Shown: positions 13,151 through 51,487, numbered from the stretch's first letter. The stretch is 64,000 nt of DNA from Candidatus Poribacteria bacterium (GCA_963666305.1 OY762722.1:3478432-3542431); one strand, 5' to 3'. Notes: a model not told the origin generated them from the letters alone. Translations and numbers: made by a program.

Positions 13151-13182
13151 GTGACGGCACTTACGTACCCAAAGGTTGCATT
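13151..13182 (-). promoter_or_regulatory. ECF-type promoter copy (TGCAACC-N17-CGTCAC) upstream of the PA14 gene pair
   Basis: In gene orientation the sequence is AATGCAACCTTT-GGGTACGTAAGTGC-CGTCAC. It has the same architecture and spacing as the six other copies. Confidence 0.6.
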
Positions 13183-13216
13183 TTTTTTCAAAAACGCCCT
13201 ACGGAACTCACTGTAT

Positions 13217-13999
13217 TTAGTGTGTGAGCGAATAGATAACGGCGTTAATTCCCATTTTGAATGCTATATCCGAATATGCTTGCGGATAGAACGAATCCGC
13301 GGCGTGTTCCCATGCGTCTCCCCAATCGGTATTGAAGTTAATCATCATCATGAGCCTGCGGTTGTTATCATAGATTCCGAGACACCGCACGCGGCTGCCG
13401 CCAGTACTATCTCTTTCGTAAGTCCTTCCTCTGCGTGCTGAGCCTGATCCGGGAATTTGCATCAACTCGTTAATGTTATAGAAGCAGTTAAAAATCGGGT
13501 GCGAGATCGGGATGTCCTCGGGTTCACGATCCGGGAAAATTTTCTTCAACTGTTTATAAAACCGCTTCCATGCCTGTCTTCCGTGAAAATCATCGACAAC
13601 GATGAAACCACCGCGTAGCAAGTATTCCCGTAAGTTTCTCGCCTCAGCATCAGTAAATTTCAAACGCTTGACATCAACCATATAGCCAAACGGGTAACGA
13701 AAAAGTTCCCCAGAACCAACATCAATTATCTTTTCCTTTGAACTCACCGCGATATTTGTCTGCTCGCGGAGCTGCAGGATGAAGTTCCGGTCTGAAGCGG
13801 GCCAATCTGTCTCCCATTTGCCATGATACCCCCAAGAACACCTATATTTCAGACGGACGAAGGTGAATACATCAGTCTCTGACTCCTCTACTACAGCCGC
13901 AGAGGCGAAATTACCTCCGAAAATAGACGATACTATCAATATTGATACAATATGGAATGCAAAGGATAGTAAAAAAATACGATTTATGTTTCGTAGCAT
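13217..13999 (-). CDS. Secreted DUF4159-like protein (copy A)
   Basis: It is a paralog of 7284..8012 (FTFVRLKY...DWPASDRNF...LREYLLRGGFIVVDDFHG...MMMINFNTDWGDAWEH). The likely start is the ATG at 13999, preceded by AAGGA. Confidence 0.5.
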   Translation of the reverse strand: MLRNINRIFLLSFAFHIVSILIVSSIFGGNFASAAVVEESETDVFTFVRLKYRCSWGYHGKWETDWPASDRNFILQLREQTNIAVSSKEKIIDVGSGELFRYPFGYMVDVKRLKFTDAEARNLREYLLRGGFIVVDDFHGRQAWKRFYKQLKKIFPDREPEDIPISHPIFNCFYNINELMQIPGSGSARRGRTYERDSTGGSRVRCLGIYDNNRRLMMMINFNTDWGDAWEHAADSFYPQAYSDIAFKMGINAVIYSLTH

Positions 14000-14109
14000 T
14001 TCGTTGTCCTTGTTACCGTTAAAAATTAATTGGACACTTTCAAGCAATTCCTAATGCTGTTATCGTGCACTGGACAGGCACAAACTAACAGTTTATGCTA
14101 AAAATCTGA

Positions 14110-16113
14110 TTAAAAACTATAAAACCAGAGGACGTTGAATTGCACACCTCGTTTTGATTCAAAAGCTTTCGCAACGTTAAACCGTAGGAAGGAGTCGCTT
14201 TCACCGAACTGAAAACCGATCCCCGCATCGCTCTTCGGTACAAGTGTGCGCGTTTCGTCAGTTAAATTCCACGTTTGACCTGCATCAAGAAAAAGCACCA
14301 AAAAGAGGTTAAAATCAAAATCAGATTGCGTGTTTCTCCAAAAAAAGAGTTCCGGTAGGGGGTAAAAATATTCGACGTTGAAGAGGTAGCCACGGTCACC
14401 AGCAAAAGCGTAGAGTGGATAACCGTTCAATATGCCCGGTCCACCGATGGTAAATTGGCGTTGAATCGGTAGAGATTCAGTTGAAAAACTACCGATTGCC
14501 CGAGTCCGTATCCGATGTTTGCCGAGTGAATGTGCATAGCGAAGATGGAGTTGGTAGCGTGTAAAATCGAAGTCTGAACCGAAGGCGGTGTTGCTATGTT
14601 CAACCGAAAACGTGTTGTGCCAACCGAGATAATTTGTGCGAAGGTTAAGATCGTACATGAATATGACACTCTGCATCCGACCAGATGTTATGGCTGGATT
14701 TTCTCGCGCTATTGACGTTGAACGCCAATTGAAAAGATGCCAATCTGTGCTTTTTTCCAGACTTTCGTGATATTCAGCAAGAAGTGCCAACTTAAGCAAA
14801 TGCCTTGCGGGAATAGACTCCACACGTGGCAGTTTTTCCCATCGGAACGCTACTTCAACGCCAGTCTTCAAATAATAGTTGTGCAAGTTTTCCGCACCAA
14901 AAAGGTTATAGAACAAAGCACCTGGATCATTCAAAGAATGGGAAACACGATAAGGAATCACGTTGTCAGGTGTGATGTCTGCAACACGGTGGACCTTGGC
15001 ATTTATGCCAAACCCATGATACCATCTGTCAGCATCTCCCTCCAGATTGTTAAATTGTGTGTACGTCGCAAATGGCATCGTATCAATACCAATTTCGACA
15101 TCTGTTATTTTGTTACCAAACCCGTAACCTGCATATCCAAAAATATTTGAGGTCGGCATTCCATTTGAAAAACGTGCTCTTCGTAAATCCCTTTTTACAG
15201 TCGTACCCAGTTTCCAACCTGTGACCCGATTAAATCTAATCATTGGGTTCATTGTAAAGGAACCAGAAGATCGTAATGAAGCACGTTCCTTCACCGTAAT
15301 CACCGCGATATGTTTCCCCTTTTTTTCTTTAATACTCGACTCTACCGCCTCTAATTTCGCGCCCATTTTTTTTCGGAGTGTTCCTACTGCTTTTTCGATG
15401 TCCTCGTCACCAGTTTCAAGCGTTTCGAGAATCTCCGACCTATCAATTGTATGATTGCCCTGAATCTGAACTTCATGGATCTGCGAACCATCGGCAGTAC
15501 GGAACCGCGTCGGTGAAGAGGCAGGTTGTTTGTTAAAGCGACCAAACGGAAGGGGAAGACGAAAGGTCACAGTAGTCCGTAAAGAAGCAGGTTGTTCGTC
15601 GAAGTCTAACACGAGTAGCGATTTCACTTCAGGAATCTCAATGCCGAGTTTACCGAGATCCGTTAAGAGTTGACCTGCCTGTTGCAATGGAACACTGCCA
15701 ACGATATTTAGCAGATAGACCTTCTCAGCACTTTTTATAACCGCAAAGATGCCCGTGAAGATATCATCCAGGCTTGTGCCTTCCAGAGCAGCTCCGTTCA
15801 GGACATAGAGTCCGACCCTATCATCTTCCTGTATGCCGTTCCAGTCTTTCGCCTTCAAGTTTTCGCTGTAATATTGAGCAAGTTTATCATAAATACCGAC
15901 TTCATCATCGTAGATGTGGATGTAAAGGTCGCTTAGTGTATTAAAGGGTGCTGTCGGAGCAGCGAGTGCAATCAGTTCACGTGTGAAGTGGAATTGAAAC
16001 TTGGCATTTGGTATATCCGGGCAATCGAAAGGGATTGTGCCGTCTGGCGTTTCAGCAGACGTTTGCACGGATACAGTCAGTAGAACGACTATGATATATA
16101 ATATGTATTTCAT
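14110..16113 (-). CDS. Omp85-superfamily outer-membrane beta-barrel with N-terminal extra domain and one POTRA-like domain (copy A)
   Basis: Its N-terminal domain is homologous to that of 8164..10620. The POTRA-like segment is IHEVQIQGNHTIDRSEIL... The L6-like motif is GGPGILNGYP. The C-terminal ...FNVLWFYSF ends in Phe. The likely start is MKYILY at 16113. Confidence 0.65.
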   Translation of the reverse strand: MKYILYIIVVLLTVSVQTSAETPDGTIPFDCPDIPNAKFQFHFTRELIALAAPTAPFNTLSDLYIHIYDDEVGIYDKLAQYYSENLKAKDWNGIQEDDRVGLYVLNGAALEGTSLDDIFTGIFAVIKSAEKVYLLNIVGSVPLQQAGQLLTDLGKLGIEIPEVKSLLVLDFDEQPASLRTTVTFRLPLPFGRFNKQPASSPTRFRTADGSQIHEVQIQGNHTIDRSEILETLETGDEDIEKAVGTLRKKMGAKLEAVESSIKEKKGKHIAVITVKERASLRSSGSFTMNPMIRFNRVTGWKLGTTVKRDLRRARFSNGMPTSNIFGYAGYGFGNKITDVEIGIDTMPFATYTQFNNLEGDADRWYHGFGINAKVHRVADITPDNVIPYRVSHSLNDPGALFYNLFGAENLHNYYLKTGVEVAFRWEKLPRVESIPARHLLKLALLAEYHESLEKSTDWHLFNWRSTSIARENPAITSGRMQSVIFMYDLNLRTNYLGWHNTFSVEHSNTAFGSDFDFTRYQLHLRYAHSLGKHRIRTRAIGSFSTESLPIQRQFTIGGPGILNGYPLYAFAGDRGYLFNVEYFYPLPELFFWRNTQSDFDFNLFLVLFLDAGQTWNLTDETRTLVPKSDAGIGFQFGESDSFLRFNVAKAFESKRGVQFNVLWFYSF

Positions 16114-16430
16114 ATTCACTTTCTGGGCATACACGGTTTTTGGAGGTTGTAAAGGTTATTATAATAACTTAAGCGTGCCTTGTCAAATTGCTGCGTCTGA
16201 AAGGTTTAACGATGGGTCTACAAAGCGCGTTTACAGAACAGGAAAGGCGTGCTTTCTAAGTACGTCTACAGCGGGTATGGTTGAATTAAGAACTAACCCA
16301 AGTTGCTATCTTCTGATCATGAGGATACCCACTATCACTGCCTCCACGGAGTATTACAAATAGTCCAGGTAGGAGTGAAAGGATTACGTATCGCATCTGT
16401 ATCTCCTTGGTATTGTGGGTACATTCGTGC

Positions 16431-16648
16431 TAATTGGATCCGAATGTGTAACGCTTTGTAGAAGTTCCCTCACGCGCTTCTATGCTCTCCACACGCGCTT
16501 CAAACCCCTTTTTTTCGATGGCTTCTATTAAAGCCGCTTTTACACGCTCTGAGATTACTTCATTCACACCATTAGCGGGATCGGCCCCAGCGAATGCCCT
16601 TATCTGAACAATAAAGTACTACTGACAAACAGATAAATGACCACTTTA
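16431..16648 (-). pseudogene. Small putative lipoprotein ORF (~72 aa) interrupted by a 1-nt frameshift in a C3/G3 run
   Basis: A GGAGG RBS precedes ATG...MRQLKWSFICLSVVLYCSDKG (lipobox-like LYC), then a frame change at 16597-16599. The continuation AFAGADPANGVNEVISERVKAALIEAIEKKGF... is open only in the -1 frame. Confidence 0.35.
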
Positions 16649-16779
16649 GCTGACGCATCTTAATTTTCCTCCATACTTTAAAAAACTATGGTAGATTTTA
16701 CAATTACGCATACAGCGGAAAGGAACCAGGATCTGGTATGCCCAATTATGCAGAGCGTTAGAAACAATAAAAAATAGGG

Positions 16780-17349
16780 TTACTCTTCATCTTCATCACC
16801 CTCGACTTCTATAGGAATTTTGAATTCTTGAGGGTTTACCCCCTGGTCCTCAAGGTCCTTAATCTGGTGTTCAAGTTGTTCAGCATTTTCTTCCAAAGTC
16901 TTGATATAGTCCCGACTTTCATCGTTATCGCGCGCGATTTGGAGTTCTATCTGATTCGCTCGCAGAAGCTCCGGCACAGTTGCTTCCTTTTTCCGGAAAA
17001 TCTTATGTGTGAGAACTACCCACTCTTCCAAGAGAGAATGATCGCCCTTAGCGTGGATATACAAAGAGATTCTGAGTGCTTCTAATGCTTCAGCACTGTC
17101 TTTATCTTTGAATTCAAGATACTTGAGCATATATTCTTTTGCCCTTGCTTTCCGCTGCTCAAGTGGACGGGATAATAGGTAATCAAGAGATTTTAACTTA
17201 TTTGCAAGGGCTGCCTTGTCTTCTTCATTCAACCTCTCAACGATGCTGACCGATGTTTCTTCATCCACGCCATCAGGGTCGTGATCGCAGCCAGTATTTC
17301 CAGTTGTGAAGATGATAAAAAACGCGAGAAGAATAAGAAATCGGATCAT
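16780..17349 (-). CDS. Secreted/lipoprotein-like coiled-coil protein of unknown function
   Basis: A signal peptide ends NTGC. The protein is charged and helical (EEDKAALANKLKSLDY...EENAEQLEHQIKDLEDQ). Confidence 0.5.
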   Translation of the reverse strand: MIRFLILLAFFIIFTTGNTGCDHDPDGVDEETSVSIVERLNEEDKAALANKLKSLDYLLSRPLEQRKARAKEYMLKYLEFKDKDSAEALEALRISLYIHAKGDHSLLEEWVVLTHKIFRKKEATVPELLRANQIELQIARDNDESRDYIKTLEENAEQLEHQIKDLEDQGVNPQEFKIPIEVEGDEDEE

Positions 17350-17440
17350 TTTAGTGCCTCCTCAGCAATTGCAGGTTGCTTTATTCATTAAAACTGACGA
17401 TTCGCGCGTGATAGTTCATATCTCGCATCGCTTATCCACA

Positions 17441-20400
17441 TTATTCATCAAGGTTGAACCGCAGGACACCACGATTCGCGGTGCCGACATACAGTATGTT
17501 ACCATCAACAGTGAAAGAGATAACAGAGCCTGGAATTTCGGGTGTTGCCTGTTTCCATGTATTGGAATCCTCTTTCAAGAGATACACGTGTTGATTGGTC
17601 TGTCCATACACCGTTGTGCCCTCCGCTGCTAATCGGGAGACGACGAGAGATTTACCTTCAGCATCGGTTGTGACGTGCCAGTGCGTACTGTCGTTTGAAT
17701 ACGCAACACCTGTGTCGGTTGCCACATAAACGGTTGGTCCCGCGAAGGCGATCGCCTTGAATTTCTCAAAAGAGAACGGGATACCTACAGTAACATCGTT
17801 CCAGGTGTCTCCTTCATCAAACGATTGAAAGAGGTGTCCCTCCCGTTTTCCGACGTAAACAGTACTGCCCGACACGGCGATTTTGAAGCCCATAGAAGTA
17901 ATTGAATCATGAGCAGTAGCAACATCAGCGGAATAACTGTCAGGAGAGGACAATAGAGATGCGAAAGAGTCTTCGCCTGTATCTACTAACCCCGTGTTAT
18001 GCCACTCACTCATACCCGGTTTCCATCTATAAAGCGTCTTCCCGTATTCCACATAGTAGGTATCGCTACTCACGGCAAAGTTTCCAATAAACGCCATCAT
18101 ACTTGCTGAAGCTTGTTCTTGCATAACCTTATTCATGGTTTCATTTAACTGCTCAAAATCAATATCTTCGGGATTTGGTGGTTCGCCCTTTTCAAGGTTT
18201 TGCTTAGCCTTGTCCGTAAACGCTTGCATCATAATTTCGTCCATTTCTATGCGTATTTCCTGTGAATTGATACTTTCAAAAGCGGGCATACCCTCTATAA
18301 ACGCCATGCTATTGTCCTCGGTGGATAGACGAGCTATCGGCGAAGGCGAAGCCATATGATTCCCTCTCTTTACATACAAAGTATCGTCAAATGCTTCAAT
18401 AAGGACACCGGCGTCAATACCACGGGGAAGCGGGGTCCACGATTCACCCTTGTCTGCTGAGAAGACAAATCCATTTGTTGAATTTGCGTAGAGTTTATCG
18501 TTAACAGTGATGAGCGTCTGAACCGGAATACCAACGAGCCCGCTATTAAACGGATACCACGATTTGCCACCATCAATTGTGCACTGAACCCCGGACGGTC
18601 CTCCTTTGTAGAAAGTGTTTTCGTTCATCATCAGCATAGGTGGCGGCACGTTGTAACCTGACCCACCATTTACATTTAAGGCAGTCCAGGTTTCTCCGGT
18701 ATTCATGGAGTAGAAAAGTTCTCCAAACGCATCTACGACTGTAACTTTTCCCTGTGTTGCGAAGAGTTTGATACTCGGCATATAGATTTCTGTTGATTCT
18801 GCACCAGGAAATGGGAAACTTATCCCAAATTGTCCGCCTTGCTGCTTCTCTTCTCCACCCTCCTGTCTTTTCCGTGGATCTATGGAGTACCACGTATCGC
18901 CTTGATCTGTTGAGCGGTAAAGCGACCACTCATCATTCCCTGTCAGCGAAGATTTAAATTGCATCCCGATCTGATTCTGATTTGTCAGTTCGTCCCCCAC
19001 GGCAGCATAGAGACGATGTTCATCGACTGCTAAGGCATGGATGGCTGATTTGTTTTCGGACATTTCTGCTGGACGGATGGTCAATCTTTCCCATGTATCT
19101 GTGTTGAAACGATAGAGTCCACTGTCAGTCCCAGCAAACAGGGCGTTTTCAATGGCGGCGATTGCACGAATTTTTCGATCCGCGAGGTTCTCGTCATTCA
19201 GAGGTATCCACGACTTGCCGGTGTCCACAGAACGAAATATCCCTCCAATGAGAGCAAGATTCAGAGTCATATCGGCTTCTGCCCCAGGTCCCCTATCTGT
19301 TATGACCATGCCAACCGGCTGCCCTTTTGGGTGCGCACCGAGCGAAGTCCATGTCTCACCATCATCTGTAGAAGTCAATACCTCCCCATTGGTAGCGACG
19401 TAGAGCGTCCCGTCCCTCTCTACCATCTGTTGTGTGCCGCCCATCATCCAATCTTTCAGACTGAGTGATGTTGGACTTCCAGCGATGACGAGTTTCCATG
19501 AATGTCCGTCGTCTGCCATCTTATAAAAATTGGTGGAGGTTCCGGCGAAAATGTCTCCACGCGTTGTCGTGAAGAGGGTATTGACAAGCCCCCCTGCGGG
19601 TCCCTTTGTTTGTATCCACTGCGATTTCGGTGTTGAAACCTCAGTTTCATCGACAAGTGCCGCGGCGAAGAGCCTCGCATCCGGTTGCTGACCGGCACCG
19701 GGATTCTTACCGGGGACAGCCGACGTTCCTATCTGATTCCGCACTGCAGGTTTCGCAGGTGAATCTACGACCAAAATCGCCTCGATCAGATCAACCGTCC
19801 GTTCCGATGTAGCGTTTAGGTCGTAAGGTTTCTGGAAACGGGAGAGATACTGTGTGCCAGCCCCCATCAATAGGAAAATCAATACAGCCGAAGCAGCAGA
19901 AAGCACCCAAGGGATCACAGGTTTATTTGCAGTCGGTGGAGTCGGAGTGATACGTGAGACCTCGTTCATAATGTTCTGTGTTAAGTTAGCAGGCAGTTCA
20001 AAACTGTTGAGATTTTGTTGAATCATGTCTTCTTCCTTCATTAGACGATTACGAGCGCGGCTGAGCCGACTCTTAACAGTATTTGGAGATACACCGAGAA
20101 ACTCAGAAATGGCTTTGATTGTCAGTTCCCCAAGGTAGTAAAGCGTCATTACTGTGCGTTCGCTTTCTGGCAGTTTCTGAAGTAGTTTCTTAACAACTTC
20201 ACGGCGCGTTTCATCCGCTTCGGCTGCCTGTTTCTCTGCTACGTATCGAGAGTATGACACTTCATTCACCTCACTCATATCCGTAACTTCTAAAGATTGT
20301 TCCGGTGGCGGATTCTTTCGGAACCAGTCAGAACACAAATTTGCCGCAATGACATAAAGCCAGCCTGGAAACTGGTTATAGTTTTTCAAGGTACCCAGTT

Positions 20401-20575
20401 TCTGGTATGCCCTAAGAAACGCGTCCTGCGTAACTTCCTGTGCGATGTGAAAATCGCCGATCTTCCGCCACACCAGCGCGTGAACCCTTTTCTGGTATTT
20501 CGTGACTAAGGGACTGAATGCGTCCTGATCGCCTTGTAATACCCGTTGAATGAGTTCAGCATCGTTGTATTCCAT
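17441..20575 (-). CDS. Fused ECF sigma factor - TM helix - Asp-box (BNR) beta-propeller protein, paralog 1 (1044 aa)
   Basis: Sigma-70 region 2 is DFHIAQEVTQDAFLRAYQKL...WLYVIAANLC. The region 4 HTH is TVMTLYYLGELTIKAISEFLGVSPNTVKSRLSRARNRL. A single TM helix is VIPWVLSAASAVLIFLLMGAG. Seven or more SxDxGxTW Asp-boxes follow (STDDGETW, SVDTGKSW, STDQGDTW, SMNTGETW, TIDGGKSW, SADKGESW, SFDEGDTW). Confidence 0.8.
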   Translation of the reverse strand: MEYNDAELIQRVLQGDQDAFSPLVTKYQKRVHALVWRKIGDFHIAQEVTQDAFLRAYQKLGTLKNYNQFPGWLYVIAANLCSDWFRKNPPPEQSLEVTDMSEVNEVSYSRYVAEKQAAEADETRREVVKKLLQKLPESERTVMTLYYLGELTIKAISEFLGVSPNTVKSRLSRARNRLMKEEDMIQQNLNSFELPANLTQNIMNEVSRITPTPPTANKPVIPWVLSAASAVLIFLLMGAGTQYLSRFQKPYDLNATSERTVDLIEAILVVDSPAKPAVRNQIGTSAVPGKNPGAGQQPDARLFAAALVDETEVSTPKSQWIQTKGPAGGLVNTLFTTTRGDIFAGTSTNFYKMADDGHSWKLVIAGSPTSLSLKDWMMGGTQQMVERDGTLYVATNGEVLTSTDDGETWTSLGAHPKGQPVGMVITDRGPGAEADMTLNLALIGGIFRSVDTGKSWIPLNDENLADRKIRAIAAIENALFAGTDSGLYRFNTDTWERLTIRPAEMSENKSAIHALAVDEHRLYAAVGDELTNQNQIGMQFKSSLTGNDEWSLYRSTDQGDTWYSIDPRKRQEGGEEKQQGGQFGISFPFPGAESTEIYMPSIKLFATQGKVTVVDAFGELFYSMNTGETWTALNVNGGSGYNVPPPMLMMNENTFYKGGPSGVQCTIDGGKSWYPFNSGLVGIPVQTLITVNDKLYANSTNGFVFSADKGESWTPLPRGIDAGVLIEAFDDTLYVKRGNHMASPSPIARLSTEDNSMAFIEGMPAFESINSQEIRIEMDEIMMQAFTDKAKQNLEKGEPPNPEDIDFEQLNETMNKVMQEQASASMMAFIGNFAVSSDTYYVEYGKTLYRWKPGMSEWHNTGLVDTGEDSFASLLSSPDSYSADVATAHDSITSMGFKIAVSGSTVYVGKREGHLFQSFDEGDTWNDVTVGIPFSFEKFKAIAFAGPTVYVATDTGVAYSNDSTHWHVTTDAEGKSLVVSRLAAEGTTVYGQTNQHVYLLKEDSNTWKQATPEIPGSVISFTVDGNILYVGTANRGVLRFNLDE

Positions 20576-30862: not shown

Positions 30863-30967
30863 ATTTTCGGCAGAATAACAAAATCGACCTCAAATTCTCA
30901 CCTGTAGATAGGTTTAAGTTTCCGTTGCTTCCACAAACTGAAGACCGAAGACTGATAACTACTCACA

Positions 30968-35747: not shown

Positions 35748-36347
35748 CTATTGTAGGTAGGGGAGCAGCAGAGTCTGGAGTCTTTGACGGGCATGGTGCA
35801 AATATGTTTTAACGGTGCTTTCCGACTTGTCTAAGTGTGAGGCAATCTCTTTTATCGGGAGGTCCTGCAAGTAACGCAAACGAAAAGCGCGACGTTGTCC
35901 AGATGGCAGTCGATGCACAGCACTACGGATAACGCGTCCAAGTTCCTCCTCCTCAAGAATCTGACAAGGTGATGACTGCTTTTGGAGCATCGGGAGGCAA
36001 TCGTCGGCGTTTTGTGGTAATGTCTCACACGCAAAAACGATTTCCCTATCTCGTTTGCGGAGGAAATCAATACTACAATTGACAGCAATTTGGTAAAGCC
36101 AACTATAAAATACGGATTGTCCCTTGAAGTTCGGCAGTGCCTGCCACGCCTTCAAGAACACTTCTTGGCAAAGGTCTTCCGCTGTCTCGCGATCCCGAAC
36201 CTTACGGTAAATCAAATTATAGATTTTTTGCTGATATTTGTATACGAGTGGGTTAAACGCCTCTGTATCGCCATTCTGCGCACGCGCCACAAGTTCCGAC
36301 TCATTGAAATCGTTGCGTTCAGGGTGTATTGTTAAATCACTTCGCAT
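35748..36347 (-). CDS. Stand-alone ECF (RpoE-like) RNA polymerase sigma factor, 199 aa
   Basis: Region 2 is DLCQEVFLKAWQALPNFKGQSVFYSWLYQIAVNCSIDFLRKR. Region 4 is QRRAFRLRYLQDLPIKEIASHLDKSESTVKTYLHHARQRL. No anti-sigma gene is adjacent. Confidence 0.8.
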   Translation of the reverse strand: MRSDLTIHPERNDFNESELVARAQNGDTEAFNPLVYKYQQKIYNLIYRKVRDRETAEDLCQEVFLKAWQALPNFKGQSVFYSWLYQIAVNCSIDFLRKRDREIVFACETLPQNADDCLPMLQKQSSPCQILEEEELGRVIRSAVHRLPSGQRRAFRLRYLQDLPIKEIASHLDKSESTVKTYLHHARQRLQTLLLPYLQ

Positions 36348-37944: not shown

Positions 37945-37949
37945 ATTCC

Positions 37950-40347: not shown

Positions 40348-41082
40348 TTATGCGGCTGTGTCATCCGCAGGTTCGTATCCAGCAACGTAATGCAGATACA
40401 ACGCCTCGAGATCCTCTTTTAGAATTTCTTCGCGCGTTAGCTCCCGTTCAAGATTGCCTTGCACCAGAATACCGATTCTGTCAGCAACCTCCTTCGCACG
40501 GAAGATGTCGTGTGTAGACATAAAGATAGATTTCCCTTCCTCCTTTAGTTCACGGAGTAGATGCAGGAAATCGGCACCCCCCTTCGGATCCAAGCCGGAG
40601 GTCGGTTCATCAAGCAGGACGGCTTGTGCGTTTTTCATGATCGCAATCGCAATGCCCAAGCGTTGACGCATCCCCTTGGAGAAGGTCTTGACGCGCCGTG
40701 TAAAGGCTTCTTCCGGCAGGCCGACGCGTCCGAGTGTCGCATCGAGCTCCTCGTTTGATATCTTTTTGCGTCCGCCGAGTTTCGCGAAGAAGGACAGATT
40801 TTGCCGTGCTGTAAAGTTGCGATAGAGTTCCACATTCTCAGAAACGTAAGCGAGATGCTTCTTCGCTTCGAGTGGGAACTTCGGAATCTCAATGTCACCT
40901 ATCAATGCAGTGCCGCTTGTCGGTTCGATGAAGTTAAGTAGCATTGAGATGGTCGTGCTTTTCCCGGCACCGTTCGCACCGAGGACGACATAGATTTCAC
41001 CGTCGTCCACTTTCAGGTTCAATTTATTCAAGGCTAAGACACTTTCGTTATAGACTTTCGTAAGATCACGGGTTTCTAACAT
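40348..41082 (-). CDS. ABC transporter ATP-binding protein (ABC-2/CcmA-like)
   Basis: Walker A is GANGAGKST, the signature is FSKGMRQRLGIAIAIM, and Walker B is VLLDEPTSGLDP. It lies immediately downstream of the ABC-2 permease 41254..42696. Confidence 0.85.
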   Translation of the reverse strand: MLETRDLTKVYNESVLALNKLNLKVDDGEIYVVLGANGAGKSTTISMLLNFIEPTSGTALIGDIEIPKFPLEAKKHLAYVSENVELYRNFTARQNLSFFAKLGGRKKISNEELDATLGRVGLPEEAFTRRVKTFSKGMRQRLGIAIAIMKNAQAVLLDEPTSGLDPKGGADFLHLLRELKEEGKSIFMSTHDIFRAKEVADRIGILVQGNLERELTREEILKEDLEALYLHYVAGYEPADDTAA

Positions 41083-41253
41083 GGGTTTCTCCTTAGGTTA
41101 TTTTTTCCGCTTTATAATTAAGGATACAATTTTGAGGCAGAATGGGTGCATCGTGGAATGGTTAAGGGTATCAGTTATCGGTAAAGAGGTTTTCGTTTAG
41201 CCATATCCCTCTTTAACCGAAAACTGAAGACCGACGACCGATAACCACTCACA

Positions 41254-42696
41254 TTAAATATCGGAACGGAAGAACTTCAAAAACGCCACGACTGTGAACA
41301 CCAGTGCGAAAAAACCGAGTAAGAACACATCCACTGCGGAGCGGCGCAATGTGTCCGATAAAGCAGGTTCTATTAACATTGGTGGCGGCAGGATTTCGTC
41401 TGTTTCGGATTCAGAAGAATCATTCACTCGATTCATCACTTGTAGCATCTGTGCCATCGCGTCGTCTGAAATTGTGCTGAAATATGTATCATCAAGTTGA
41501 TCATAGTACCGCTCGCCCGTTTGAAAGTAGGTATCCCTTTTTAACGTGCCGGTTTGTGTGAGGTTCATTGCAAAATAGGTGAGTGAAGACGTTGGTGCGA
41601 TCCGGGAGAGCATCTCACCAACCTGCTCTTGCCGATCCTTTTCGCGTTGATAGTCCCTGTCAATTTTACCCGATTGATTCTGGAACTCCAGTCGAAACTG
41701 TTCATCAATCGGGCCTCTGAGTTTATCCAACCTTTTTTGCGTCTCTGGATCGTTTAGGTTAATACGAACACTACCGCCGCTCTCAAAAGCTAAAGCCATT
41801 TTTTTGTTAATCTTGTCTTGCTTATCTTTCATGAGGTTATTGTGAAGTGCGCTTTTTTCCATATAAACAGCCTGCTGTGTCCGAGTGGGTGCGACGAGTT
41901 TCGCGACGACAAACGCGCCTCGCGGCGCGATCAGCACTGCAAATACCCAAAACGTAAAAGCGACAATGAGCGCAGTCTTGGCGTTGTCGAGATACGTTGA
42001 AATGACGACACCTATCGCAAAAAAGACCGCAATATAGAGCAGCGAGACAAGCGTCAGACCCAGCACCGGCAGTGCAACCTTAAGCTCACCGAGCGGAAAT
42101 CCCTGCCAGACGATTAGGAGCAACCCCAAGAGGAAGGATACCAAAAAGGGAATGACGAACACGATGTATCCACCGATCAGCTTGCTCCACAGAAACACAT
42201 CTCGGGGAAGCGGATTTGACAGATTTATCCGGAGCGTGCCTGCCTCTCTTTCTCCGGCAACAGCATCAAATGTGAACAGAAGTGCCAGCAGGCTGAAAAC
42301 CGTCCCGATAATAAACAGGAAATCAAGGTTCCCGAGTGCATACGCCACGGATGCCTGAGAAATCCCTGCTGAACCTTGTCGAACGCCATTACGCGTCATC
42401 CCAAGATAGGTCGGCAGTGCTTCTTCTAAACCGTTTGCGAAGACGCTCAAAGGTGTAGGTTTGAGGAAGAACTTAGAGACTTCCACGTTTGGGTCCTGTG
42501 CGTTCGGTGGATTCTCCTTTGCTTCTGCGCGTGTGCGTTTTACCGATTCTTGATAATCTGTCACATTCTGGCTATATCTACGATAATTGATGGAAAGGGT
42601 GAGCGGGATGAGCAGCGCACACATCAGCAAGAGTGCGACGAACCGGACGCTGAGAATGTGATGCATAATCTCTTTTTGAATCAATGTCGTTAACAT
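41254..42696 (-). CDS. ABC-2 family transporter permease
   Basis: It is a paralog of 30968..32392 (MLTTLIQKEIMHHILSVRFVALLLMCALLIPLTLS..., with a C-terminal ...AFLKFFRSDI shared). It has multiple TM segments and is paired with the ATPase 40348..41082. Confidence 0.7.
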   Translation of the reverse strand: MLTTLIQKEIMHHILSVRFVALLLMCALLIPLTLSINYRRYSQNVTDYQESVKRTRAEAKENPPNAQDPNVEVSKFFLKPTPLSVFANGLEEALPTYLGMTRNGVRQGSAGISQASVAYALGNLDFLFIIGTVFSLLALLFTFDAVAGEREAGTLRINLSNPLPRDVFLWSKLIGGYIVFVIPFLVSFLLGLLLIVWQGFPLGELKVALPVLGLTLVSLLYIAVFFAIGVVISTYLDNAKTALIVAFTFWVFAVLIAPRGAFVVAKLVAPTRTQQAVYMEKSALHNNLMKDKQDKINKKMALAFESGGSVRINLNDPETQKRLDKLRGPIDEQFRLEFQNQSGKIDRDYQREKDRQEQVGEMLSRIAPTSSLTYFAMNLTQTGTLKRDTYFQTGERYYDQLDDTYFSTISDDAMAQMLQVMNRVNDSSESETDEILPPPMLIEPALSDTLRRSAVDVFLLGFFALVFTVVAFLKFFRSDI

Positions 42697-44132: not shown

Positions 44133-47100
44133 CTAATTAATTTTAAAACGTAACACACCACTGCCAGCGGTACCGACATAAAGCACGTTCTCCTCAACAG
44201 CAAGAGAGGTAATAGGCATTGGGATTTCCGGGGCAACCTGTTCCCACACACCAGTATTCTCTTTCAATCGATACACGTGTCGCTCGCTTGTCCCATACAG
44301 CGTTGTCCCGCCTATTGCAAACCTTTCTATAAGGATAGGCGCGCCTTCTGTATCCGTTGTTGCGTGCCAGTGAACGCCATCATTGGAGAACGCAACTCCC
44401 TTATCGGTCGCGACATAAACGGTGGATCCTGTAAAGGTTACTCCCTTGAAATGTGCAACAGGAAAGGGGAGGCTCGCCGTAACATCGTTCCACGTATTTC
44501 CCTCATCAAACGATTGGAAGAGATGTCCATCCCATTTACCGACGTAGATAGTACTCCCTGAAACCGCAAGGTTGGAAGGGAGGGAATCAGGATTGTTAGC
44601 GCTGTCAATCATATCGACAGGAAGTTCATTGATGAGTCCGGTATTCACCCATTCAGTTGCGCCGGCTTTCCATCTGAAGAGTCTTTGCTCATACTCCATA
44701 TAGTAAGTATCACCACTGACAGCGAAACCCCCGATAACCGACCTCACAATTTCACCCAGGAGCTCCTCTAAGGCCGGACTATAGTCTTCAACAAATGCCT
44801 CCATATCTAAATCTTCAAGGATATTATCTTCAAGGATGTTTTGCTGTCCGTCAGTCTGGTCTGTTACTGGCAGAATTTCCTTGAAACGTTCTTCCATCAG
44901 CTTGGTATAGTCTGTCTCCTTTAAAAATGGCATACCCGGAACAGACGTTAACCGATTATCCTCGGTAGATAAGCGAAAGAGGCGGGGGTGAGGTGTCGTG
45001 TCGTCTATAGCTCTGGCGTAGAGCAGATCGTTGAATCTCACCAACTGAATAATGTTTCCGAGGCTGCTTGGAACAAGTGTCCATGACTCGCCCGCATTAG
45101 ATGAGGTGAGAAGTGTGCCTCCGACGTTAGCATAGAGCACATTCTGCACAGAAACTAAATTCATCACGGCTGTCTTTACCAATCCAGCGTTAAACGGATG
45201 CCACGTTTTGCCGGTATCGGTTGTGCGATAAATCCCGGACTCTCCGTTCCAATAGAAGGTATTTGCATTCAAAGACACGAGCGTGGAAACATCTCCTATG
45301 CCCGGTATACTTGAATCCAAAGTAACCCAGGTGTCCCCTGCGTCATTTGAATAATAACCGTTTCCGTCGTCCACTACGAAAAGGTTGTCTTCCACTGCTA
45401 CCATTTCAAAGATTAAAGTCGTTTTCGTTTCTGCGTCCTTAGGACTCTCCTTGCCATTTTGGGCGGATTCCGGAGCTGCAGGTTCAACCCGAATCGTCAT
45501 GCTAACTTGGGGGGAAGGCTCTGTTTCTGTTTTTTTGTAGTCTAATGTCTGCCACGAATCTCCCAAATCTGTTGAACGGTACAGGGATAGAGATGCCTTC
45601 CATACTATTCGCGCTGGCAGCCCGAACCCAAAATCCTTGTTCACCACCTTGTCCCCCACGGCAACATAGAGTCGATACCCGGCACTTGCCAGTGCGCGGA
45701 TATTGCGGGTCTTATGGTCTTCATCCACCGGTAATAGCGTCCAATCTTCGGAACTACGGCGATACAGTCCAAAATCGGTCCCAACAAATACGACATCTTC
45801 AATAGTAGTGATTGCGCGGATTTCTTTGTTCACCAACTTCTCGCTTACGGGATCCCATGATTTCCCAGCGTCCACGGAACGGAATACGCCATCAACAAGT
45901 CCCAAGTACATTGTAATATCGGTTTGCTCTCCAGGGATCCCATCTGTTATGACGAGGTCAATCAGCTGTCCTTCTGGACGTGTGCCGAGTGAATTCCACG
46001 TCTCGCCTCTGTCCATTGAAGCGAGGACTTCCGTATCAGAAACAACATAGAGGGTATTCTCATGTTCTGTCATTTGCCATGACCCATTGATGGACATGTT
46101 GCTACTGACAAGCCCCCACCGACTTTTATCGTCCGCCAATCTATAGAGATCGGTATCTGTTCCGGCGTAAGAATCGCCGTTAGCTGCGATGAACAGGTTC
46201 TGCACGCTGCCACCTTCGGGGCCCTTTGTTTGGCTCCACTGAGGTTTGGGTGTTGGGACTTCTGCGGTGTCAATAGGCAGCGTAGCAACAAGGGATTCTT
46301 CGGATTTCTGTCCTTCCCCTGGACTTTTACCGGGGAGCACGGAACTTCCTGCTTGACTCCGTATTGCAGGTTTCGCAGGGGAATCGTAAACAAAAACCGC
46401 GTCAATAATTTCAACCGTCGGTTCCGATGTTGCATCTAAATTGTAAGGCTTCTGAAAACGGGAGAGATATTGCGTGCCAACACCCATCAGCAGGAAAAGC
46501 AAAACAGCCGAAGCCGCAGAAAGTGCCAAGGGTGCCACCGGTTTACTCACTGCAGGTGGCGGAACAGGGGACATACGCGAGACTTCCTGCATGATGTTAT
46601 CCGCTAAGGTATCAGGGAGTTGGAAGCTGCCAAGATTCTCCTGAAGCACGTCTTCCTCTTGCCGCAAACGGTTGCGTGCACGACTGAGTCGGCTCTTGAT
46701 GGTGTTCTGGGACACACCGAGAAACTCGGAAATGGATTTGATTGTCATCTCGCCAAGGTAATGCATCATCATCACCGTCCGCTCACTCTCTGGCAGCTTT
46801 TGGAGCAGTTTCTTGACGACTTCACGCCGTGATTCATCGGCATCGGCTGCCTGTTTTTCTGCTACATATCGAGAATATGACACTTTGTCCACCTCATTCG
46901 TATTGTCGGCATCTAAGGATTCCATCGGTAGGCGATTCTTTTTCAGATAGTCGCGACACAGGTTTGCCGCGATAACATAAAGCCATCCTGCAAATTGGTT
47001 ATGGTTTTTCAATGTTCGGAGTTTCTTATACGCGGTGAGGAACGCGTCTTGCGTAATTTCTTGTGCGATATGAAAATCACCGATCTTCCGCCACGCAAGT

Positions 47101-47198: not shown

Positions 47199-47304
47199 CG
47201 AAAATCTCCTCCGGAATTATTGCCTTTATGATAGAAGGAACGTAACCTTAAGCAATTCGATTGATGAAACTTTGAAAAATAGTAAGATGTTGCTTCTGTA
47301 AGAT

Positions 47305-48318
47305 TCAGTCCCCAATTTTCATTTTTCCCCACACCGTAGTTAACAACTGTGGTTGTGACGAGACTGGTAAGGCAAACGCCGGATCGAACCAATCCGCGCT
47401 GAAGTTATTACCCCGGTGTGTGAGTTGTTCCGAGATACCTCCGCCCAAAGCGATTTTGAAAAGGTGTGTGGCACCACGGATCCGCTTTACGTAAACGAGT
47501 TCATCCGCCTGCGGTGCCCAGATAGGCGCAGATGTTGCCCCGTCATCTGTAGCAACAATGCGCTGTAGTCCGCTACCATCCCGGTTTACAACATAGATAG
47601 CCGCGGTATCCGCCGCATTTTTGCCTGCTAAGAGATCTGCTATGGGGATCGCATCCAGATTTATCCAGGAAAAGGCTATCTTAGTACTATTGGGGGACCA
47701 GGCGGGGGCGTGCATCAAGATCTCTCCTGGAAGAAGTATCTCTTCCGTATTGGTTTGTAGATTGATAATCTGAATCTTGGGACCCCTGGCTTGGAGCACT
47801 CCCCCAGCATCAAGTGCAAACCCTTCATCGGCAACAAAGGCTATCTCAGAGCCGTCGGGTGACCACGCGGGCCACAAACCATTCGTAAGTTTCGCCTCAT
47901 CTTTCCCATCACTCGAGGCGACGTAGACAGCAAATTTTTTAAATCGGTGATAAGCAAACTGTTTTCCATCGGGCGACCAAGTTGGGTGTTCTCTACCCAC
48001 TAATCTCCGGAATACTTTACGCACGTTTGTCCCATCCGCATCCATAAGGTAGAGATCCTTGACTCCCTGTCGTCGATCGGAGGCAAAAAGAATTTGCTTA
48101 CCTGTTGGCGACCAGACGGGGTTGGTATCGGAGGCACGATGTTGGGTTAAGTTTACCTGCACAGACCCATCTGGGTTCATAATATAAATTTCGGAATTGC
48201 CATCGCGGTTCGATGTAAATGCGATTTTGGCAGTTGCTGGGGCTCCTGCAAAAGCGACACGGATAATTCCAAAAACGAGTAGTACACTGAGTGGATAAAA
48301 AATAGGGTTACATTTCAT
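47305..48318 (-). CDS. Secreted TolB-like (PD40/WD40-like) beta-propeller protein
   Basis: The signal peptide is MKCNPIFYPLSVLLVFGIIRVAFA. PD40-type repeats follow (FTSNRDGNSEIYIMNPDGS, SPTGKQILFASDRR, SPDGKQFAYH, SPDGSEIAFVAD). GGAGG lies 8 nt before the ATG at 48318. Confidence 0.7.
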   Translation of the reverse strand: MKCNPIFYPLSVLLVFGIIRVAFAGAPATAKIAFTSNRDGNSEIYIMNPDGSVQVNLTQHRASDTNPVWSPTGKQILFASDRRQGVKDLYLMDADGTNVRKVFRRLVGREHPTWSPDGKQFAYHRFKKFAVYVASSDGKDEAKLTNGLWPAWSPDGSEIAFVADEGFALDAGGVLQARGPKIQIINLQTNTEEILLPGEILMHAPAWSPNSTKIAFSWINLDAIPIADLLAGKNAADTAAIYVVNRDGSGLQRIVATDDGATSAPIWAPQADELVYVKRIRGATHLFKIALGGGISEQLTHRGNNFSADWFDPAFALPVSSQPQLLTTVWGKMKIGD

Positions 48319-48580
48319 CACTGTTTCCTCCATAGATTATGTCTATCTTCACCTGCATTGAATCAGGATCGCCCCAAAACAGACGAATCCGACTGCAAAG
48401 GTAACTGAAGTTGAATTCACCAAAGTTGTGAACGGAAGGCTCATGATCCTGCGCGGTGGAAACAACCGGGCAGGATAGAGTTGCCGATCTTGAAATAGTC
48501 TCGGTATCACCGAAAGCGAGGTAAGCGATGCCGAATAGCAGCAAACAAACAAGGAGTAGATTAATCATCATAAAGCGCAT
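48308..48580 (-). CDS. Small secreted protein (90 aa) whose 5' region and signal peptide duplicate those of the TlpA-like gene
   Basis: MRFMMINLLLVCLLLFGIAYLAFGDTE aligns with the TlpA-like MRFLMINLFLVCLFLFGIGYLAFGHDE. An AAGGAGA RBS and the same ECF promoter precede it. It overlaps the TolB-like gene start by 11 nt. Confidence 0.45.
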   Translation of the reverse strand: MRFMMINLLLVCLLLFGIAYLAFGDTETISRSATLSCPVVSTAQDHEPSVHNFGEFNFSYLCSRIRLFWGDPDSMQVKIDIIYGGNSDEM

Positions 48581-48659
48581 GGTTTTCTCCTTTTAAGCGG
48601 CAGTTTCATTCGGTTCGCAAAAAACAACTTGGTTGAAATTTAAACATCCAATGATTAGG

Positions 48660-48691
48660 GTGACGACTCTTAGGTACCGAAAGGTTGCATT
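48660..48691 (-). promoter_or_regulatory. ECF-type promoter copy upstream of the small secreted ORF / TolB-like operon
   Basis: In gene orientation: AAATGCAACCTTT-CGGTACCTAAGAGT-CGTCAC. Confidence 0.6.
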
Positions 48692-48964
48692 TTTTTAGAA
48701 AAAAGTGAAAAATCATAGGACTTCCGTAGATATACTTTCAAAACGCGGGTATTTCCAAAAACAGCGGGGTTTGTAGTAGCGCAATTCATTGCGCTTTGCG
48801 TAAACCCTAAATGAAATAAATCTTGATTCAGGCAACAAAAAAGGGAACCGGTAAAACTAGCTCCCTTTTAACATTTATTGGACTTCGGAATCTACGCTGA
48901 TAGTCCCGCGACTGCTAAATGGCAAATCCCTGATCTAAATTGCGCATCGTTCCAATCTTTGCCG

Positions 48965-51378
48965 TCAAAATTCAAGTGTCAATCCGAAATAAATGATCCG
49001 AGGCAGTTGTGGCGCATCAAAGACTTCACGTTCAATGCCGACCTCCTGACCTTGTACGTCAAGTGTTGCCTCTTCAAAAATGAACTTTATCTTGTTTTTG
49101 CGGTTGTAGACATTCAGAACATCAAGGAATCCACCCGCCTTTAGTCCCCAGATGTTCCATTTATAACTCACCCGAAGGTCTAACTTATGGTACGGTGTGA
49201 GTTCGGTGCTTAATTGTTCGTCTGCACTCGCCAAAAGCGGGTTCAGTCCACGCGTTACGGGGTCTTGGATGAGAACGATGGAACTGATCGGTGCTTCGGA
49301 GGTGCCACTGAGATACTGCCACTTCGCGCCGATCTCAAACTTCGGTGTGAAACTATAGTTGGCAACAACGCTAACAATGTGCGTGTTATCGAAGAGGTAA
49401 GGTTGATAAGTAGCGGTTGGATTCTCGCGTCGCTCAGCGTGTGTATAGGCGTAGGAAATCCAACCGAAGAACTTATCTGGAATCCGATGCCGTAAGAATA
49501 CCTCCGCACCCGCGACAGACGCTGCCCCTTGATTGAGATAGTTCGAGACTGCATTGGGTGTTACCAACTTCTGTGCGTCTTTGTAATAGGTAGCAAGTTT
49601 CAATTCGGTCCGCGATGAGAGTTCGTGTTCTAATTCCATGATATAGTGTCGTGTGAGACTTGATTCCAATGTCCGGTTGCCGTTTTCCGCTAATAACTGA
49701 GACGGTTGTGGACTCTGTTCATAGTGCCCATAGGCAAAGCGAAGATTGGAACCGTTCGGCAACTTGAAACTCACACTCCCTCGCGGTTGAATAGAAACTT
49801 GCTCTGTCACATTCAGATAGTCAAATCGAACGCCGAGTGCTACCGACAAGAACGAAAGCGGGTCATATCGTCCTTGTACGTATCCTTCAGTCCGATAGAA
49901 ATCGTGCCCGAATTCGTCGTGTACCTCCTCGAAAGTGTCTTCTCTGATGATTTCACCGTCGGGTGTCTCCGTTGTATAACTTAGATCATGATCTGACTCG
50001 AAATTTTCCTCAAGCCAGCCGTTTTCAGAGCTCTTCGCGGGATTGAAGGCGTAGAGAAAACCTGACTCTAATTGAAGCGTTGGGTTTAATCTGTAGGAGA
50101 CATCTTCGCGCAGCATGTAGACTGGGGCATTAATCTTTATTTCATAGTGGAAGTAGTTCGCTGCGTAGCTTGAGGGGTCCACTCTGCCTGCAACGACAGT
50201 GTAACTCTCCCCGGTTACAGCTTGGAGGTCAATATTGAGAAAATTATGGGAACGGGTCAAAGAGAGATAGGAGGTGAGATTTTCGGTGAAATTTGAGCGG
50301 AGATGAAGCCCTTGTCCATCGAACCCGTTTTTGAAATGGACACTTGAGCGCGCAGCATCTTGATAGGGAATTTCTTCTAAATCTTGTATTTCTTCGCCCT
50401 CTTCTACCAGGGTTGCCTCTCCCGTAATCTGAAAATGGTCAGTTGCAGCGAAGGCATTCACTGTAAGGTGATGCTTTTCACCGAGCGGATAGGCACATTT
50501 GAGTTGATAGTCTGAAAAATAGGGTAACTGCTGTGACGTTCCCGTCTGCTGCGCAATGATCGGTCCAGCGATGAGGTCTAAGTAGCTGCGCCGCCCAGAA
50601 GCGGAGATGTATCCCTGATCACCGACTTTGGTTTCGAGGAGTCCTTCAGAATAGAGAAGATTTAAATTGAATTTTCCGCTCCACGACTTTTCGATGCTAT
50701 CACGAGCGTAGATGTCAAGTACGGCTTGCGAGTCGAGTCCGAATTCAGCCCCATATCCACCCGCATAGATGTCGATTTTTTCAAGGCTTTCTGAACTGAT
50801 TGTTGAAAGTAAACCGCCCCAATGGAAAGGGTAGCCGAGAGGTGTTCGATCGAGATAATAAAGGTTAGATCCGGGTTCACTCCCACGGATGTAGAGTGCC
50901 CCGAAGTAATCGTTTGGGATGCCGATGCTTGGGAGGGTCATGAGCCCTTTGAGGGTATCATTGAGGGTGCCGGGGATACGAAGGAGTTCACTCCCACGGA
51001 CTTCCGTGCGACTGATCGTAGGTGGCAGCCGTTTCCCTTCCACCACAACTGTTTCGAGTTTAAAGGCTACGCCGAGGTGTATTTTGATTTCCGTGGTATC
51101 GCCGCTACTGATGTCTACAGTGACTTTTGTGGGGGCACTTCTACAGGATGTGTGACGACGAAGGTATATGTACCTGCGGGCAGTTTCGTGAAGCGGAAGA
51201 CCCCATTTGCATCGGTTTTTTGGTGCTGATCGGTTTCGAGGATATGAACATCGGCGTCCACGAGGGATTTTCCTGTGCTTTGCTGATAGACGGTTCCTTG
51301 AATATCGCCGGTTTGGGCTAAAACAGAGAGTGGCATGGTGACAAACGCAAATAGTGCTATGATGAATTGTGGCTTCAT
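48965..51378 (-). pseudogene. TonB-dependent receptor (CarbopepD_reg N-domain + plug + barrel) split by a 1-nt frameshift in a T4/A4 homopolymer at 51126..51129
   Basis: The upstream frame encodes a signal peptide plus a carboxypeptidase-regulatory-like domain (GTVYQQSTGKSLVDADVHI...TDANGVFRFTKLPAGTYTFVVTHP). The downstream frame continues ...KVTVDISSGDTTEIKIHLGVAFKLETVVVEGKRL...plug...barrel, ending ...RIIYFGLTLEF. Adding one A restores PQKVTVDI continuity. Confidence 0.7.
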
Positions 51379-51455
51379 TGAGTCGTTTTACCTCTGATGT
51401 GGGCGTTAATACATTTCTGAGTATTTCCCAAAATCCATTACATCCAACGATTAGG

Positions 51456-51487
51456 GTGACGACACTTGAGTCTCGAAAGGTTGCATT
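51456..51487 (-). promoter_or_regulatory. ECF-type promoter copy upstream of the TonB-dependent receptor
   Basis: In gene orientation: AATAATGCAACCTTT-CGAGACTCAAGTGT-CGTCAC. Confidence 0.6.

Follow-up and report, generated by a model that had tools for sequence, protein, structure and literature searches.

A stretch of 64,000 nucleotides (nt) of Candidatus Poribacteria DNA, hereafter the window, contains seven copies of the element TGCAACC-N17-CGTCAC. With good probability, they serve as promoters for RNA polymerase bound to a sigma domain from the fused extracytoplasmic function (ECF) sigma factors encoded in the same gene array. The element looks like the promoter through which a clade of membrane-anchored ECF sigma factors specific to Poribacteria regulates itself, and it would drive an envelope regulon. 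From sequence comparison, we infer transcription from a predicted start downstream of the element and the fused sigma factors, not another ECF sigma factor, as its readers. The seven copies (P1 to P7) punctuate a single array of minus-strand genes between about 7.3 and 51.5 kb, which includes four fused sigma genes (S1 to S4; Table 1).

A pattern search of the window yielded six exact matches, with an expected count by chance of 0.00 (100 dinucleotide shuffles of the window). The remaining copy, P2, has a single mismatch, TGCAACT. A position weight matrix (PWM) of 54 nt, trained on poribacterial copies from outside the window, gave scores of 50.6 to 70.7 for the seven sites, -2.3 for the next best site in the window and 7.3 for the best site in shuffles. 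The matrix scans and the calls of open reading frames (ORFs) covered the full window. Because of the gap between 50.6 and -2.3, the window has exactly seven full copies, the same seven near-invariant sites that a first-pass annotation of this DNA had listed. All seven are located outside ORFs of at least 150 amino acids (aa), and each points to a minus-strand gene. Three copies precede fused sigma genes, with 39, 39 and 40 nt between the last C of CGTCAC and the start codon. A uniform distance of exactly 40 nt had been proposed, which is essentially right, but exact once and one nucleotide too long twice. The other four copies stand before a PA14 gene pair, a TlpA-like gene, a small ORF with a TolB-like gene and a TonB-dependent receptor gene; here the Pfam assignments agree with the earlier gene names. 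The yTAAG upstream of CGTCAC and two subfamilies of downstream sequence were recovered as described before. CCTAATCAtwGGATGT follows P1, P6 and P7, and TTCAATCAAyAGAyGT with its relatives follows the other four. Stretches from other genomes that were compared with the window are labelled L005 to L189. The P2 arrangement is found likewise in S1 orthologues (L039, L119), and S3 orthologues are identical at P5 (L117, L118). The same motif precedes PA14 orthologues (L020, L057, L070), as at P1, and TlpA-like orthologues (L016, L089), as at P4. Terminator-like hairpins are located just upstream of P3 (29329-29304) and P5 (35525-35509).

The genome-wide search suggested by the first-pass annotation was performed with AATGCAACCTTT-N14-CGTCAC (18 specified bases) on one genome per species, covering 185,579 species. 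Counts of stretches, copies, assemblies and gene classes from this search are counts among the matches listed and thus lower bounds. Poribacteria account for 104 of the 114 stretches, from about 59 assemblies. Homologues of the encoded proteins with a named source are poribacterial as well. The other 10 belong to scattered unrelated taxa and lack the conserved flanks; about 17 chance matches are expected for 18 specified bases in 1.2e12 positions, and the 10 non-poribacterial matches are about at this level. Although ORFs of at least 150 aa, taken as coding sequence, cover 82% of the 850 kb of poribacterial DNA, 135 of the 137 copies are located outside them. The motif is decisively not as frequent in coding as in non-coding DNA. 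A co-oriented ORF with a ribosome-binding site begins within 400 nt of 128 of the 137 copies, at a median distance of about 80 nt. The first downstream gene encodes a fused sigma factor in 69 of these 128 cases and a member of the small-peptide/TlpA-like family in 29. Lipoprotein-like proteins (8), ABC ATPases (7), STAS proteins (5), PA14 proteins (4), Reg_prop propeller proteins (3) and a few others follow. Regulon membership thus appears conserved between species, because the same kinds of genes bear the motif in different species. For most fused sigma homologues with at least 64% identity, the gap between motif and start codon is 35 to 44 nt. Since the set of matches was itself chosen by the motif, a motif-blind sample was added, consisting of fused-sigma genes fetched from metagenomes by protein similarity alone. 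In 25 of the 57 usable genes, at least 11 of 14 bases matched within 160 nt upstream of the gene, compared with 0.17 in shuffled upstream regions. The co-oriented position before most homologous sigma genes and the motif-blind sample argue for autoregulation as first proposed. The conserved gene classes behind the motif are consistent with the candidate envelope regulon, and all computational tests agree on it.

Pairwise identity among the window copies amounts to 70% within the element and 30-32% in the 60 nt flanks on either side, which is the random level. Third codon positions of the paralogous sigma genes are 62-67% identical, and 13 core bases of the element are invariant in six copies. 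On these grounds the identity of the element is ascribed to selection, not to recent duplication. Copies of a dispersed repeat without promoter function, either similar to repetitive extragenic palindromes or miniature inverted-repeat transposable elements (REP/MITE-like) or remnants of segmental duplication, would also recur along an array. Parts of this array are indeed segmentally duplicated (S3-ABC2-P4 is paralogous to S4-ABC2-degenerate copy), the promoter has spread along with a 5' fragment of the TlpA-like gene, and many genomes have copies in tandem at a distance of about 103 nt. Such a repeat is nevertheless extremely improbable. The element has neither terminal inverted repeats nor a hairpin, its orientation is always that of the downstream gene, and it almost never lies in coding sequence. 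The core is invariant where neutral sites of the co-duplicated sigma genes have diverged and flanks are random, and the element is kept at orthologous genes in the assemblies mentioned above, which are counted at species level.

The anatomy of the element was derived from the information content over 112 non-redundant copies, with positions counted from the T of TGCAACC. The conserved block extends from -13 to about +46, has sharp edges and is at background on either side. Its consensus is tTtt..AAAATAA-TGCAACC-TTTtgA.A.cTAAgtt.-CGTCAC-tt.AATcAA.ggatgt. Beyond the bases fixed by the search, the conserved parts are an A-tract 5' of the -35, TAAG 3 nt before the -10 and AATCAA 4-9 nt after the -10. 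Spacer length is invariant across the seven window copies and 133 genome copies. For other ECF promoters, position -10 is assigned to the C of GTC. Counted from there, the predicted start is the conserved CA of AATCAA, about 8 nt past CGTCAC. If so, the 5' untranslated regions of the sigma genes would measure about 30 nt. The part common to all gene classes stops at the predicted start, and the leaders past this point are class-specific, as expected for 5' untranslated regions. The combination of AAC in the -35 and CGTC in the -10, previously pointed out as the ECF signature, is joined by a T-tract next to the -35. The -35 part, tGcAACcTTTt, nearly equals the tGAAACnTTTt of Bacillus subtilis ECF promoters, in which the T-tract is functional and CGTC serves as -10 for several paralogous ECF sigma factors (PMC5758882).

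A start from a housekeeping-type promoter is very unlikely. It would use either the AATAAT 5' of TGCAACC as -10 or an embedded TTGA.A-N15-TnnAAT, leaving the conserved block as leader RNA or operator. A sigma-70 scan flags AATAAT as -10-like at P3 and P5, but a conserved -35 is missing 17 nt upstream (information content below 0.2 bit), and in distant variants AATAAT becomes AATT, TTTT or AATC while ATGCAaCC and CGTCAy stay. Many copies bear TTGACA or TTGAAA at positions 10-15 together with TAnAAT at 31-36; these hexamers, however, are 15 nt apart, not 16-18, and TTGACA is missing from most window copies. The block is conserved for about 15 nt past the -10. In some clades CGTCAC lies only 23-25 nt from the ATG, where a downstream -10 would put the start on the ribosome-binding site. 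A partial ACGTC/GAYGT inverted repeat, present in about two-thirds of copies, shows no covariation, its paired counts equalling the expectation under independence. A structured RNA leader was rejected, with no Rfam family match in the window, folds no better than those of shuffles (z -1.9 to +1.7) and no covariation. A perfect canonical promoter, TTGACA-N17-TATAAT (12/12), stands elsewhere in the window (16158-16186, minus strand), directly 5' of an Omp85-family gene (14110-16134) that lies inside the array and has no ECF motif. Housekeeping promoters in this DNA thus appear to be canonical, unlike the motif.

The fused sigma factors S1 to S4 are paralogues of 941 to 1044 aa with a common layout. 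An ECF sigma domain (residues 1-185) is followed by a linker of about 35 conserved residues, one transmembrane (TM) helix and a BNR/Asp-box/Sortilin-type region. Sigma70_r2, Sigma70_r4_2 and Sigma70_ECF all match within residues 6-183 in all four proteins (Pfam), which assigns them to the group 4 sigma factors, having sigma-70 regions 2 and 4 but not 1.1 and 3, and TIGR02937 scores 97 bits against a cut-off of 43. The best matches of the sigma domain in the PDB are SigW (E 3e-26), AlgU-type SigH and RpoE, sigma factors that recognise AAC/CGT promoters. SigW is also the best match in NCBIfam, but its 123 bits are far under the equivalog cut-off of 209; the domain is therefore no SigW orthologue. 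The hydrophobic helix spans about residues 222-245 and precedes the propeller region, so the predicted product is a single polypeptide with a cytoplasmic sigma domain, a TM segment and an extracytoplasmic domain. Within the roughly 35 residues between sigma-4 and the TM helix, no Pfam or PDB sequence match, to an anti-sigma domain or otherwise, was obtained at E up to 10. The juxtamembrane PDxLTENVM may be similar to an RsiW-type pre-TM segment, a likeness that no Pfam or PDB sequence match backs. In an AlphaFold (AF2) model of S2, residues 320-943, the only usable region, form two tandem seven-bladed propellers. Foldseek matched these to GH74 xyloglucanases (E 1e-22) and to hybrid two-component system (HTCS) sensors of Bacteroides (E 1e-16 to 1e-18), at sequence identities of 11-16% and TM-scores of 0.23-0.46. 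By analogy of fold, this suggests glycan-binding sensors.

The sigma modules of the four paralogues are 74-77% identical, their sensors only 36-37%. The recognition segments of sigma-2 and of sigma-4 are near-identical, with NT[V/I]KSRLSRARNRL in sigma-4. With recognition helices this similar and sensors this diverged, several sensors would converge on one promoter type. Among 130 sigma genes, the type of -35 in front of a gene corresponds to the sigma-4 helix which that gene encodes. SRL[S/N]RARNRL is associated with a -35 of ATGCAACC (54 of 66, most exceptions being the operonic S4 clade), SRLRRA[R/Q][N/Q]RL with ATGCACCC and [L/I]RLHRARQRL with ATGTAACC (3/3). Genes encoding xT[I]xSRL[Q/H]RARKRL have no such motif upstream. 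That the -35 variants track the sigma-4 helix is what self-recognition predicts.

The ECF-type promoter may alternatively be read by some other sigma factor, for example the stand-alone ECF sigma factor encoded at 35748-36347, just upstream of P5, and the fused proteins would then be targets. The stand-alone gene belongs to the array and its position beside S3 is kept in the close relatives L117 and L118. A free sigma factor has no membrane-tether problem, and the fused proteins are assigned as readers from their sequence. The stand-alone protein, however, has a very different sigma-4 helix (STVKTYLHHARQRL), and its own gene has no motif upstream. A single separate reader would not predict that the -35 variant follows the helix of the fused sigma factor directly downstream, as it does in several clades. 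The motif also precedes fused-sigma genes at loci where no stand-alone ECF gene is seen nearby. A separate reader is accordingly quite unlikely, and the fused sigma factors are preferred.

Several points weigh against the fused sigma factors as readers of the element. The sigma domain is membrane-tethered and comes without a recognisable anti-sigma domain, which makes its access to DNA a problem. In the AF2 model of S2, sigma domain and linker have a predicted local distance difference test (pLDDT) score below 50 and are uninformative on autoinhibition. Compared with the SigW and SigX archetypes, the TGCAAC-N18-CGTC spacing has 1-2 nt more, and it is at or past the optimum of 14-17 bp quoted for ECF sigma factors. 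Conservation of the TAAG spacer and of the 10-15 nt behind the -10 exceeds what is usual for ECF promoters, and this surplus could reflect a second bound factor. Finally, the association of sigma-4 helix and -35 is confounded by phylogeny, as clades share both traits; it is therefore supportive, not decisive.

Under the preferred reading, sigma-4 would bind the extended -35, AAAATAA-TGCAACC-TTTt, and sigma-2 would melt and read the -10, cTAAG-N3-CGTCAC. Transcription would begin about 8 nt downstream, at the conserved CA. Any activated paralogue would induce its own gene and the genes of its paralogues, resulting in positive feedback. The envelope output would comprise the PA14 proteins with Omp85/DUF4159, the TlpA-like redoxin, the small membrane peptide with the TolB-like protein, and the TonB-dependent receptor, extended by ABC exporters encoded downstream of the sigma genes. 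The periplasmic double propellers would serve as input domains, possibly for glycans, by fold analogy only. The tethered sigma domain may become active by proteolytic release, as in IutY and SCO4117, or act while still at the membrane.

The fourth sigma gene has no full promoter copy of its own. The degenerate copy noticed before it in the first pass, with CGTTCC as -10 and TCAATC as -35, was found again (Table 1). The regulatory divergence proposed for S4 was borne out in part. Its altered -35, CAATCGA in place of GCAACCTTT, is real, but it recurs in the orthologues L028, L011, L107, L077, L099, L064 and L116 and hence represents a clade-wide state, not a one-off decay. Each of those loci has a small ORF, driven by the motif, whose end lies 50-110 nt upstream of the sigma gene. 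In the window, the small ORF is separated from S4 by the PD40 gene, and the 106-nt gap before S4 has no predicted terminator-like hairpin. Given the upstream small ORF throughout the clade and the gap without a hairpin, S4 is probably co-transcribed from P6 and would hence still be in the circuit.

A second degenerate copy, at 41122-41151, is a paralogue of P4 by segmental duplication (repeat family D16, offset 10286). Orthologues of the ABC ATPase gene behind it bear the canonical motif elsewhere. The copy resembles the upstream region of another fused-sigma clade (L179: ATGCACCC...GTATCA), and because of this likeness it may be a working promoter for another sigma factor rather than a dead copy. 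The duplicated block, which includes a fused sigma gene and an ABC-2 permease gene, has 77-85% nucleotide identity. The two genes have different offsets, 11.8 kb and 10.3 kb, which means that insertion or loss of genes followed the duplication. Duplication clearly helped to spread the promoter.

Tandem full copies about 103 nt apart were observed in L025, L042, L060, L064, L077, L089, L099, L105 and L107. A vestigial second copy downstream of P1 in the window, assigned to repeat family D19, fits this spacing. The motif also drives a gene for a 113-aa STAS-domain protein of the anti-sigma-antagonist type in other Poribacteria (L089 5105-5600, L099, L074, L026); no STAS gene follows a motif in this window. 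The STAS gene hints at a partner-switching layer tied to the regulon.

All non-sigma genes behind the motif in the window encode envelope proteins according to Pfam. P1 probably also drives a DUF4159 gene (7284-8012) beyond the genes listed for it in Table 1. The TonB-dependent receptor gene behind P7 is split into two reading frames by a frameshift, as a pseudogene or through an assembly error. ABC exporters and ABC-2 permeases are encoded downstream of the sigma genes. In the small ORF behind P6, residues 1-24, MRFMMINLLLVCLLLFGIAYLAFG, hardly vary across the phylum and recur at the N-terminus of the TlpA-like protein. The tail of small ORFs of this family (57-90 aa) is variable. Their N-terminal membrane segment of 24 residues, MRF[LVM]MINLLLVCLLLFGIGYLAFG, is nearly invariant and identical to the TlpA-like N-terminus (window 48308-48580 and 30693-30764). 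They are motif-driven in L005, L009, L012, L028, L077, L107 and others, and often located directly 5' of a fused sigma gene. As paralogues or 5' fragments of the TlpA-like gene, these ORFs move along with the promoter. They could encode a partner peptide with a function, or they could be a piece of a gene carried along by the promoter.

Table 1. Elements, fused sigma genes and associated features of the window
Feature	Coordinates	Strand	Remarks
P1	13151..13180	minus	exact match, PWM 59.3, intergenic; predicted start near 13143
P2	20615..20644	minus	TGCAACT, one mismatch, PWM 50.6; 39 nt before ATG of S1
P3	29249..29278	minus	exact, PWM 66.9; 39 nt before ATG of S2
P4	30831..30860	minus	exact, PWM 62.9; 66 nt before ATG (30764) of TlpA-like gene
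P5	35433..35462	minus	exact, PWM 70.7; 40 nt before GTG of S3
P6	48660..48689	minus	exact, PWM 63.6; 79 nt before small membrane-peptide ORF
P7	51456..51485	minus	exact, PWM 60.6; 77 nt before ATG (51378) of TonB-dependent receptor gene
S1, fused sigma	17441..20575	minus	Pfam and alignment; sigma-2/sigma-4 residues 1-185, linker, TM, BNR/Sortilin-type propeller
S2, fused sigma, 943 aa	26378..29209	minus	same layout; residues 320-943 modelled as double beta-propeller
S3, fused sigma, 941 aa	32567..35392	minus	Pfam and alignment
S4, fused sigma, 1021 aa	44133..47198	minus	recognition helices match S1-S3
Genes behind P1	PA14 11806-12960; PA14 10632-11804; Omp85/DUF4252 8164-10620	minus	Pfam
TlpA-like thiol-disulfide oxidoreductase, AhpC/TSA redoxin	29370-30764	minus	Pfam; behind P4
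Small ORF, 90 aa	48308..48580	minus	behind P6; tail variable
PD40/TolB-like propeller gene	47305-48333	minus	Pfam; after small ORF of P6
TonB-dependent receptor, split	51115-51378 (87 aa, CarboxypepD_reg); 48965-51046 (Plug and barrel)	minus	second part in other frame; behind P7
Degenerate copy	47237..47267	minus	TCAATC-N16-CGTTCC; PD40-S4 intergenic gap
Degenerate copy	41122..41151	minus	ATGCACCC-N16-TGTATCC; 39 nt before ABC ATPase 40348-41082
Vestigial second copy	13045..13077	minus	104 nt downstream of P1; -35 CTGCAACTTCTT kept, -10 lost
Duplication pairs	31698-31727 and 42002-42031; 30935-32080 vs 41221-42080; 33124-34199 vs 44921-46005

More than 7,000 distinct relatives of the sigma-sensor fusions are present in public data. 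In most other Poribacteria, proteins with an S2-like sensor (65-72% identity) bear another sigma module (54-58%, MVDNDVQLIRRILSGDDEAF...), and the TGCAACC motif is missing from their genes (comparison of window 26378-29209 with P0004-P0119, L186 1-240 and L189 640-840). As the S2-type sensor occurs on two sigma modules, evolution appears to have shuffled sigma/promoter cassette and sensor. A further clade of fused sigma factors starts with GTG-E-R-E-D-D (L005, L009, L015, L062, L096, L103, L113, L172); its sigma domain is 49-53% identical and its sigma-4 helix reads NTI[A/T]SRL[H/Q]RARKRL. The upstream region of these genes, ...TTGATTAAAC...CCAATCTGTTCAT..., is conserved and lacks the TGCAACC motif; the clade probably has a promoter type of its own. 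Short Logan contigs with homologues were considered as assembled transcripts and rejected, as they belong to another sigma clade (MVEDN...), have no motif, yielded no 5' ends and look like ordinary metagenome contigs.

ECF sigma factors commonly regulate their own genes, and prediction of target promoters from the sequence upstream is routine (PMC7826278). The promoters of SigW, SigM, SigX and SigV from B. subtilis share with the Poribacteria element AAC in the -35, the adjacent T-tract and a CGTC -10 (PMC5758882). The SigW group is also alike in autoregulation, cell-envelope regulons and paralogues with overlapping promoters (PMC5758882), traits which are predicted from sequence for the Poribacteria. 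Differences concern the -35 (TGCAAC here, TGAAAC in B. subtilis), the spacer (18 nt here, 16-17 there) and the additional TAAG 3 nt before the -10 and A-tract 5' of the -35. The B. subtilis sigma factors are held by a separate anti-sigma factor, whereas those of the array are fused to membrane anchor and sensor. An ECF sigma domain, a TM segment and an extracytoplasmic domain are combined in one polypeptide in the sigma/anti-sigma fusions IutY, ECF52 SCO4117, ECF48 and ECF53 (PMC8999054). Release by proteolysis has been described for IutY of Pseudomonas putida and proposed for SCO4117 (PMC8999054). These fusions keep an anti-sigma domain, often a zinc finger, before the membrane, where the window proteins have about 35 residues and none was detected. 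Their sensors are FecR-like or carbohydrate-binding modules, in contrast to the GH74/HTCS-like double propeller. ECF57 (formerly ECF01-Gob) of Planctomycetes is a long ECF sigma factor as well, with a C-terminal extension rich in beta-propeller (WD40-like) repeats (PMC8999054). The repeats in the window are of the BNR/Asp-box/Sortilin type. The predicted tandem seven-bladed propellers of residues 320-943 resemble those of the Bacteroides HTCS sensors BT4663 and BT4673 and of GH74 xyloglucanases. Output in the HTCS proceeds via histidine kinase, response regulator and AraC, here via an ECF sigma domain.

That an ECF sigma factor controls its own promoter along with an envelope regulon is textbook knowledge, and paralogue overlap as well as TM/extracytoplasmic ECF fusions are already known. 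In the literature searched, no paper joins Poribacteria with ECF or sigma factors, and the phylum goes unmentioned in the main text of the 2021 ECF classification. The clade described here, its promoter and the combination of a sigma domain with a double propeller in the absence of an anti-sigma domain have apparently not been described. As a tentative idea, possible though less than probable, the four window fusions and their relatives may form a fan-in network of interchangeable modules, in which double-propeller sensors that diverged long ago and probably bind glycans are served by a single sigma specificity and a single promoter. Whatever the input, the same envelope regulon would then fire and the other sensors would be cross-induced, the cassettes would be shuffled, and the sigma domain would act without an anti-sigma domain. 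Within such a network, it may act membrane-tethered or partnered by the conserved small membrane peptide MRFLMINLLLVCLLLFGIGYLAFG.

No genetics is available for the Poribacteria, symbionts of sponges that are uncultivated. A defined promoter with its probable sigma factor would offer one of few entry points into their gene regulation, and a simple matrix would suffice to list regulon members in any genome of the phylum. For the ECF field, the array adds a large phylum-restricted clade in which the sigma domain is fused to a double-propeller sensor without a detectable anti-sigma domain. Several paralogues on one promoter would raise the question why redundancy, not orthogonality, was selected, and the fusions raise the question how a membrane-tethered sigma factor is activated.

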